DNA from: Octopus vulgaris | Taxonomy: Eukaryota | DNA: 64,000 bases | Assembly: GCA_951406725.2 (NCBI GenBank) | Contig: OX597825.1 | Location: 15,066,001-15,130,000 of the forward strand | Reading direction: 5' to 3' | In this document: positions 28,511 to 29,325 of the stretch, piece after piece | Numbering within the stretch: the first letter of the stretch is position 1 | Layout: each line of letters starts with the position of its first letter | The notes under the pieces: generated by a model | The model's input: only the letters and a program-made list of their open reading frames with translations | Told to the model about the DNA's origin: nothing | The model's database searches: none | Translations under genes and position numbers: made by a program

Positions 28511-29149
28511 CGGTCCTCGAGATGCAAACCGCAAGACTAACCCCAGCTCTCAGTGTCGAGACAGTCACGTGCTTAGTCTTACTGATTACATCGGGAATAA
28601 AATTTCAAATGTCTTGGTTCTGGCGCACTGAGAGACTCCTGAAGCAAAGGGCTGCAGTGAATAATTCACTGCGGGTAGTGCTTACAACTAGGGAACGTAT
28701 TTATTTAAATATTTAAAAATTGAGGGAGATAAATTAATATTAATTTTAATATCAATTTAAAACCAGTAGTCCAGCATTCAAAAAATCTGAGGAGTCAGAG
28801 AAAATTCAAATATATGTGTATGTTGGGAGATATTGGCAGGAGTCTCTCAGCGCGCCAGAACCAAGACATTTGAAATTTTATTCCCGATGTAATCAGTAAG
28901 ACTAAGCACGTGTCTGTCTCGACACAGAGAGCTGGGGTTAGTCTTGCGGTTTGCATCTCGAGGACCGAATGTACCGAGGTATGCATTTAAGTCTGTTATT
29001 TATATAATTTTTCATATGTCCTGCCCGCCAAAGTTGGTTCTGGTGTTCGCTGAATTCTTCCTCTAGAGAATTTCCCTTGTAGTTTGATCGTTGATGATCT
29101 TCTTCTAGCATCCTGGCCAGCTACCTAGCAGGCCAGCCCTGGCAATATA

Positions 29150-29325
29150 CACACACACACACACACACACACATATATATATATATATATATATATATAT
29201 ATATATATATATATATATATATATATATATATATATATATATATATATATATATATATATATATATATATATATATATATATATATATATATATATATAT
29301 ATATATATATATATATATATATATA
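29150..29325. repeat. (AC)n(AT)n microsatellite
   Basis: Seen directly; perfect AT run of more than 150 bp. Confidence 0.97.

Follow-up and report, generated by a model that had tools for sequence, protein, structure and literature searches.

An inverted unit lacking the core of a predicted hammerhead ribozyme in a probable Penelope-like insertion of Octopus vulgaris

Within a 64-kb stretch of Octopus vulgaris DNA (contig OX597825.1; hereafter the window), one insertion carries tandem units with intact predicted hammerhead ribozymes and, at its 5' end, an inverted segment from which exactly 56 nt are missing. Aligned with both direct units after these had been reverse-complemented, the inverted copy shows this single gap. 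The data tilt toward one slip of a polymerase on DNA between imperfect direct repeats as the origin of the deletion, without deciding the matter.

Layout and affinities of the insertion

The whole insertion comprises 2.2 tandem 546-bp units and a 5' inverted segment, and lies inside a microsatellite. It is likely a protein-less, Penelope-like, retrozyme-type insertion in (TA)n, that is, a mobile animal repeat. Hammerhead positions are numbered by the standard scheme, with which PMC4209133 agrees, and the features are as follows.

27489..27624, no strand: (TA)n target microsatellite at the 3' end of the element, adjoining unit 1, which begins at 27625
27625..28171, minus strand: direct unit 1, 547 bp, with an intact predicted hammerhead (by alignment)
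27888..27965, minus strand: predicted type I hammerhead of unit 1 (by motif, fold and descriptor)
28172..28717, minus strand: direct unit 2, 546 bp, 39% GC
28434..28511, minus strand: predicted type I hammerhead of unit 2, same sequence as that of unit 1
28448..28515, minus strand: gapped direct repeat at the deletion, with GACCGAA-TGT-AC on its upstream and GACCGAA-AC on its downstream side
28449..28504 in unit 2 and 27903-27958 in unit 1, minus strand: the 56 nt missing from the inverted copy, C3 to A15.1 in the middle placement (by alignment)
28718..28839, minus strand: 5'-truncated part of a third unit, whose end is an imperfect 10-nt duplication (28820-28839)
28837..28839, no strand: inversion junction, a 3-nt CAG common to the direct and inverted parts
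28837..29153, plus strand: inverted 5' segment of 317 bp, corresponding to 373 nt of monomer less the missing 56
28967..28988, plus strand: core-less remnant GAATGTA-CCGAGGTA-TGCATTT, with the AC junction at 28973-28974
29149..29325, no strand: (CA)12(TA)76 flank, sharing ACACA with the end of the inverted copy
42589..42900, no strand: fold-back element of a different hammerhead family, both arms intact, with C3 at 42786 (plus) and 42702 (minus)

The (TA)n tract at 27489..27624 is likely the site of first priming, and the ACACA at the (CA)12(TA)76 flank is likely the site of second priming or joining. The longest ATG-initiated ORF of unit 2 encodes 36 amino acids in the sense direction and 64 in the antisense direction. 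No further copies of the 546-bp unit were found within the window beyond this insertion. No locus in bacterial or archaeal genomes matched in an exact 22-nt scan, a result that is uninformative for an animal repeat, and a scan for bacterial promoters and terminators returned no sites, which is irrelevant to this element.

Several other repeats were recorded in the window. An inverted-repeat element of about 345 bp at 27007-27355, also adjoining (TA)n, has long arms and a 44-nt internal repeat, and no hammerhead core was found in it. A tandem array of about 5.4 copies with a 184-bp period (15304-16328) is built from a SINE-like repeat that is dispersed elsewhere in the window. The minus strand of 10843-13155 contains disrupted open frames that are likely the remains of a decayed retrotransposon ORF1; of four frames tested, one reached a curated cut-off, by a match to a zinc knuckle (Pfam zf-CCHC, E 3.9e-5). 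Short frameshifted frames at 30050-30650 may be what is left of a mariner-type transposase, which they seem to resemble. The host genome is AT-rich and dense in microsatellites, and its SINE-like repeats appear similar to those of octopus.

The insertion resembles animal non-LTR retrozymes (PMC7229834; bioRxiv 10.64898/2026.07.22.740005) in its protein-less tandem units with GC below 50%, in the type I hammerhead found in each full unit (1 and 2), and in the highly self-paired RNA of the monomer. It differs from them in its 45-nt stem II region, with a motif of the Penelope-like element (PLE) type rather than the canonical one, and in its 5' inverted segment, which is not described in the accessible retrozyme text. 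Its monomer of 546-547 bp also lies above the reported range of 150-450 bp, so that we file it, from the sequence alone, as working like a retrozyme and not as a strict member of that class.

The insertion also shares features with Penelope-like insertions. These include a partial tandem next to an inverted, 5'-truncated copy in a (TA)n target (PMC8557442), and an AC-rich second start site with internal microhomology deletions (PMC8557442, PMC3846280, PMC4209133, PMC11167929). As in the hammerheads of Penelope pLTRs (PMC4209133), there is an extra nucleotide after A9, a large helix II and a short, near-palindromic helix III; unlike in those, the G10.1-C11.1 pair here needs a bulged C. The end extension is also longer, at about 97 nt versus 30-40 in Penelope-like insertions. 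In contrast to autonomous Penelope-like elements, the insertion has no reverse transcriptase (RT) or GIY-YIG ORF and no long ORF, and appears to work like a non-autonomous derivative.

In monomer coordinates the inverted segment spans 76-449 and the direct part starts at 434, so they adjoin on the RNA and overlap by 15 nt, as would be expected by chance in about 7.5% of cases. Microhomologies are present at the inversion junction (CAG) and at the flank (ACACA). Contiguity together with junction microhomology is what twin priming leaves, and the geometry fits twin priming as in L1 (PMC2837659). The insertion departs from that model in having no poly(A) tail, no resolvable target-site duplication (both flanks are microsatellite), and an overlap where an internal deletion is described for L1. 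Dual priming, or fold-back on the first cDNA, are alternative routes to the inversion: Penelope inversions have been proposed to arise through self-priming on an antisense template (PMC3846280), and dual and twin priming cannot be separated by sequence (PMC2837659).

Units 1 and 2 differ by 10 substitutions and one indel. Over the span shared by all three copies, private differences number 3 in unit 1, 4 in unit 2 and 5 in the inverted copy, a star-like pattern of about 1% per copy. CpG transitions make up 5 of 15 substitutions (p 1e-4 to 2e-3, with polarity inferred for 2 of them). Together these observations argue that the insertion aged in place. Differences cluster at the transition from the direct to the inverted part (28820-28839, 29134-29153 and 27722-27738), with 6 of about 20 events, including the imperfect 10-nt duplication, in about 4% of the element (p ~2e-4, n = 21, post hoc); the cluster possibly reflects error-prone starting or stopping of RT at an AC-rich site.

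The predicted hammerhead and what the deletion removes

A type I hammerhead descriptor gave 4 matches in the window, compared with a mean of 0.025 in 200 block shuffles. CUGANGA, GAAA, a UH triplet, stems I-III and an open-ended stem I are present in both units. In unit 1 the predicted ribozyme consists of a 7-bp stem I, CUGAUGA, an extra A, the 45-nt stem II region with a GCAA loop, GAAA, and a 2-bp stem III within the near-palindrome ACC-GA-GGU, with predicted cleavage at GUA. The sequence CUGAUGA-A-GUC followed by the long stem II region agrees with the PLE-type hammerhead of PMC4209133, where Penelope-type motifs are described with an extra nucleotide after A9 and a near-palindromic stem III. 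A looser motif search gave 11 matches in the window, 7 of which, including one near 20320, fail the stem I/III descriptor. Hammerhead-like words at 20235-20330 (minus strand), with a perfect ACAGCTGT palindrome and no stem I, fail it and were set aside as degenerate or due to chance.

The Rfam hammerhead models gave no match at the gathering threshold over the window, and none of the 11 Rfam matches with E up to 10 over 27600-29200 was to a hammerhead. Those Rfam matches that were obtained were rejected as microsatellite-driven miRNA or snoRNA matches or weak chance matches. A possible reason for the lack of a hammerhead match is the length of stem II.

Constrained to the hammerhead, the region folds at -12.3 kcal/mol, 2.6 above the minimum free energy of -14.9; the monomer RNA of unit 2 folds better than expected (z = -3.6), and the 91-nt ribozyme region by itself folds no better than shuffles (z = -0.2). 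Stem II is strong with RNA parameters (-11.2 kcal/mol) and weak with DNA parameters (-2.2 to -3.3). Pairing probabilities in the monomer are about 0.9 for its upper helix, below 0.1 for its basal three pairs, about 0.55 for stem I and 0.01 for stem III; in a local 158-nt context stem II is out-competed by other pairing. The bulge that G10.1-C11.1 pairing requires costs 3.4 kcal/mol. Stem III, ACCGAGGU, is an imperfect near-palindrome that is predicted to pair with itself through a tandem G-A at -6.6 kcal/mol, as in a dimeric hammerhead.

The gap in its middle placement corresponds to CUGAUGA from C3, the 45-nt stem II region, and GAAA through A15.1. The description in the initial annotation, namely loss of the CUGAUGA core, stem II and GAAA with a 2-nt 'ac' microhomology and retention of the stem I strands, proved exact in the alignments to both units. 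The microhomology is precisely 2 nt, AC at 28973-28974, and the inverted copy reads GAGGACCGAATGTACCGAGGTATGC at 28960-28984. Retained are GAATGTA, CCGAGGTA and TGCATTT, so that the predicted cleavage triplet and most of stem III remain, as do both strands of stem I; CCGAGGUA survives as well. A link between the deletion and the cleavage site was considered and rejected, the breakpoints lying 7-9 nt from the predicted site. The deletion also regains and lengthens the stem III palindrome (UACC-GA-GGUA, 28970-28984), and the predicted duplex of remnant with intact RNA is stronger than that of two intact RNAs (-11.1 vs -8.6 kcal/mol).

The geometry was compared with 26,448 distinct deletions of 15-150 nt across the 373-nt span. 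Both core strands are removed and both stem I strands spared in 9 of these (3e-4), or in 55 (2e-3) with a 2-nt tolerance, and 250 (0.9%) bracket stem II inside the ribozyme, figures that overstate the surprise because the target was defined after the event had been seen. Removal of both core strands as such is common (13%), and 6.7% of the distinct deletions have at least 2 nt of microhomology. The deletion is a single event at one locus. Within a body of literature that lacked most subscription papers, we found no published report of a core-specific deletion in retrozyme or Penelope copies.

Origin of the deletion

We favour, at somewhat less than even confidence, a single slip of the sense-strand polymerase on DNA between the imperfect direct repeats that flank the core. 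Multimeric RNA would have been reverse-transcribed from a nick in the left (TA)n, the inverted segment would have been made by second priming at ACACA on the other strand, and the two cDNAs would have been joined at CAG. During second-strand synthesis, or in later replication or repair, the nascent end GGACCGAATGTAC would then have re-annealed 56 nt downstream, with 8 bp and 2 bp of pairing across a 3-nt bulge. The core would have been lost because the repeats sit just outside stem I and at the stem II/GAAA boundary, catalysis not being the cause.

The homology of the gapped repeat lies 5' of the breakpoints, and so would aid a sense-strand polymerase on DNA and give no help to RT. We ranked anchored re-priming energies among the 987 deletions whose microhomology is 2 nt or longer. 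In the sense direction the observed junction scores -8.2 kcal/mol with DNA parameters, rank 9 of 987; in the RT direction it scores -3.5 kcal/mol (rank 174), or -8.1 with RNA parameters (rank 158). An independent alignment score over 2,500 sampled deletions placed it in the top 0.24% in the sense direction and the top 7% in the RT direction. The span holds 12 exact repeats of at least 6 nt, three of them of at least 7 nt, and GACCGAA belongs to both sets. Microhomology-mediated deletions are reported to be common in Penelope copies (PMC3846280). The ageing of the insertion in place, and a comparable deletion in a ribozyme-free SINE-like copy of the window (see below), also favour slippage. The initial annotation had regarded the deletion as independent evidence that the fold forms in the RNA. 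That claim does not hold, since the gapped direct repeat offers a cause in sequence only that is equally rare (top 0.24%; 9 of 987).

A possible, although less probable, explanation is that, during synthesis of the inverted cDNA, the RT halted 4-6 nt short of the 45-nt hairpin of stem II, hopped across it and re-primed on the AC(UGA) of the freed stem I 5' strand; the core would then have been lost because it flanks stem II. Such a hop, if true, would report formation of stem II in the RNA and not of the three-way junction. The twin-priming geometry makes it probable that the inverted segment was first made by RT on RNA, which puts this enzyme in the right place, and the contrast between stem II as RNA and as DNA, with its well-formed upper helix, also speaks for the hop. 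Owing to stem II, the endpoints are at a graph distance of about 15 nt in the RNA not yet read, against a median of 35 (top 3-10%), and the cDNA end can make five pairs, one of them G-U. It has been established in vitro that RT can switch template on structured RNA (PMC2927423), where deletions likewise span a hairpin and have short direct repeats at their ends; in contrast to those artefacts, the present case is one genomic event whose best homology is on the side that RT had not yet copied. Against a hop, the RT-direction homology is unexceptional (158-174 of 987), and the observed junction is one of 25 options that bracket stem II and not the best of them: an RT hopping stem II had stronger or nearer choices in the 7-nt GACCGAA (-10 kcal/mol) and in GAA at the stem's base. 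The poor pairing of the three basal pairs, and the competition against stem II in its local context, also count against it, and under a hop the 8+2 repeat in the sense direction would have to be a coincidence, at about 1%.

The two accounts were compared in a toy model of 975 of the 987 candidates (those with both distance values present), in which hybrid energy is a crude mean of DNA and RNA parameters. Homology-driven slippage on DNA gives the observed junction a probability of 0.010-0.016, compared with at most 0.003 for RT with the RNA fold at any setting. Under an equal, weak weighting of homology, however, RT with the fold is favoured 1.7- to 7.6-fold. RT initiation by one Penelope-like element in vitro needs little homology (PMC11167929), and if the jump needed equally little, the model would favour RT with the fold.

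Other observations also weigh against slippage on DNA. The antisense DNA gives no help from a hairpin (endpoint distance 34 nt, median 29), and the perfect 7-nt repeat, which would have given a 59-nt deletion, should have been preferred, yet went unused. Large post-insertion deletions appear to be rare in the window, with one apparent case among 20 SINE-like alignments holding 337 mismatches, a rough count and probably a lower bound, and this rarity is to be set against only 5 private substitutions in the inverted copy. That case is a ribozyme-free SINE-like copy at 9293-9446 with a comparable internal deletion of about 76 nt at 9407/9409, as defined by a split BLAST alignment. Such deletions thus occur without a hammerhead but are uncommon, which makes an origin at the time of insertion, in second-strand synthesis or by RT, at least as likely as a later one.

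The initial annotation had proposed that RT crossed the intact folded junction, or that cleavage-dead RNA was selected as template; we consider this pair of explanations very improbable. In favour of both, the middle placement removes exactly C3 to A15.1, as do only 9 of the 26,448 deletions, and stem I pairs appreciably in the monomer. It also remains correct that the deleted stretch is the core with stem II, and that stem II in RNA brings the endpoints close. The intact junction itself fares worse: in the static fold, endpoint proximity is only in the top 9-13%, and stem III is hardly formed in the monomer. RT moves 3' to 5' and would have copied the stem I 3' strand and stem III before reaching GAAAC, so the three-way junction would already have been gone before the jump, whether or not the RNA had been degraded. 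An account based on the fold therefore survives solely as a hop over stem II.

The preference for cleavage-dead RNA is weakened by the two intact cores in the same insertion, and by the fold-back element at 42589-42900, in which two of two cores are intact. That element, the window's one further inverted hammerhead element, has a 6-bp stem I, a 60-nt stem II and a self-complementary ACGAUUGU; its arms differ by one T and its ribozymes point outward. Since the descriptor search finds intact cores only, it is a weak control. In Schistosoma, opposite-strand pairs of intact motifs are reported at spacings of 100-700 bp (PMC4209133). Catalytic mutants of the hammerhead altered neither insertion activity nor product size in vitro, and unprocessed RNA was the dominant substrate (PMC11167929), although this evidence, from one element in vitro, could also be read as uncleaved RNA being the template.

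It is improbable, too, that the deletion was inherited, the template of the inverted segment being a core-less unit in the master array or, by dual priming, a second RNA of a core-less subfamily. Four of the 5 private substitutions of the inverted copy fall within 32 nt of the priming end, and these substitutions would suit a separate source, as would the Penelope-like protein of PMC11167929, which cleaves and extends both strands and is a predicted dimer; dual priming would leave the same sequence as twin priming (PMC2837659). However, the divergence of the three copies is star-like and similar, the inverted part adjoins the direct one on the monomer, and no other copy occurs within the window.

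Still less probable is a deletion blind to structure and homology, as by end joining, or an error of assembly in a difficult inverted-repeat region. A 2-nt microhomology is unremarkable, loss of both core strands is frequent among random deletions, and tandem and inverted Penelope insertions are known to trouble assemblies (PMC8557442). Against this, chance would seldom give either the geometry (0.03-1%) or the flanking repeat (0.24-0.9%), and the junction is clean.

Implications for Penelope-type retrotransposition

As it stands, the locus is a single defective copy of a mobile repeat of known type, and its value is that of a lead. The assembly of Penelope insertions that combine tandem and inverted parts, and the role of the hammerhead in them, are stated as open questions (PMC8557442, PMC11167929). 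The twin-priming-like geometry, and the occurrence of two hammerhead families with long stem II within the same 64 kb, are arguably of no less use than the deletion. The two directions of synthesis also suggest a strand-resolved test: slips of RT should enclose RNA hairpins and rely on homology located 3' of the breakpoints, and slips on DNA can rely on homology 5' of them.

It is a doubtful generalization that, in second priming, Penelope-type RTs repeatedly jump over the long stem II of passenger hammerheads. The product of such a hop would be a core-less unit with a stronger dimerisation palindrome, which could serve as an uncleavable partner or a decoy for a dimeric ribozyme. Were the recurrent hop true, inverted copies would record in the genome how RNA is structured within the retrotransposition complex, and a skip recurring across independent insertions would be evidence, obtained in vivo, that RNA folds during retrotransposition.
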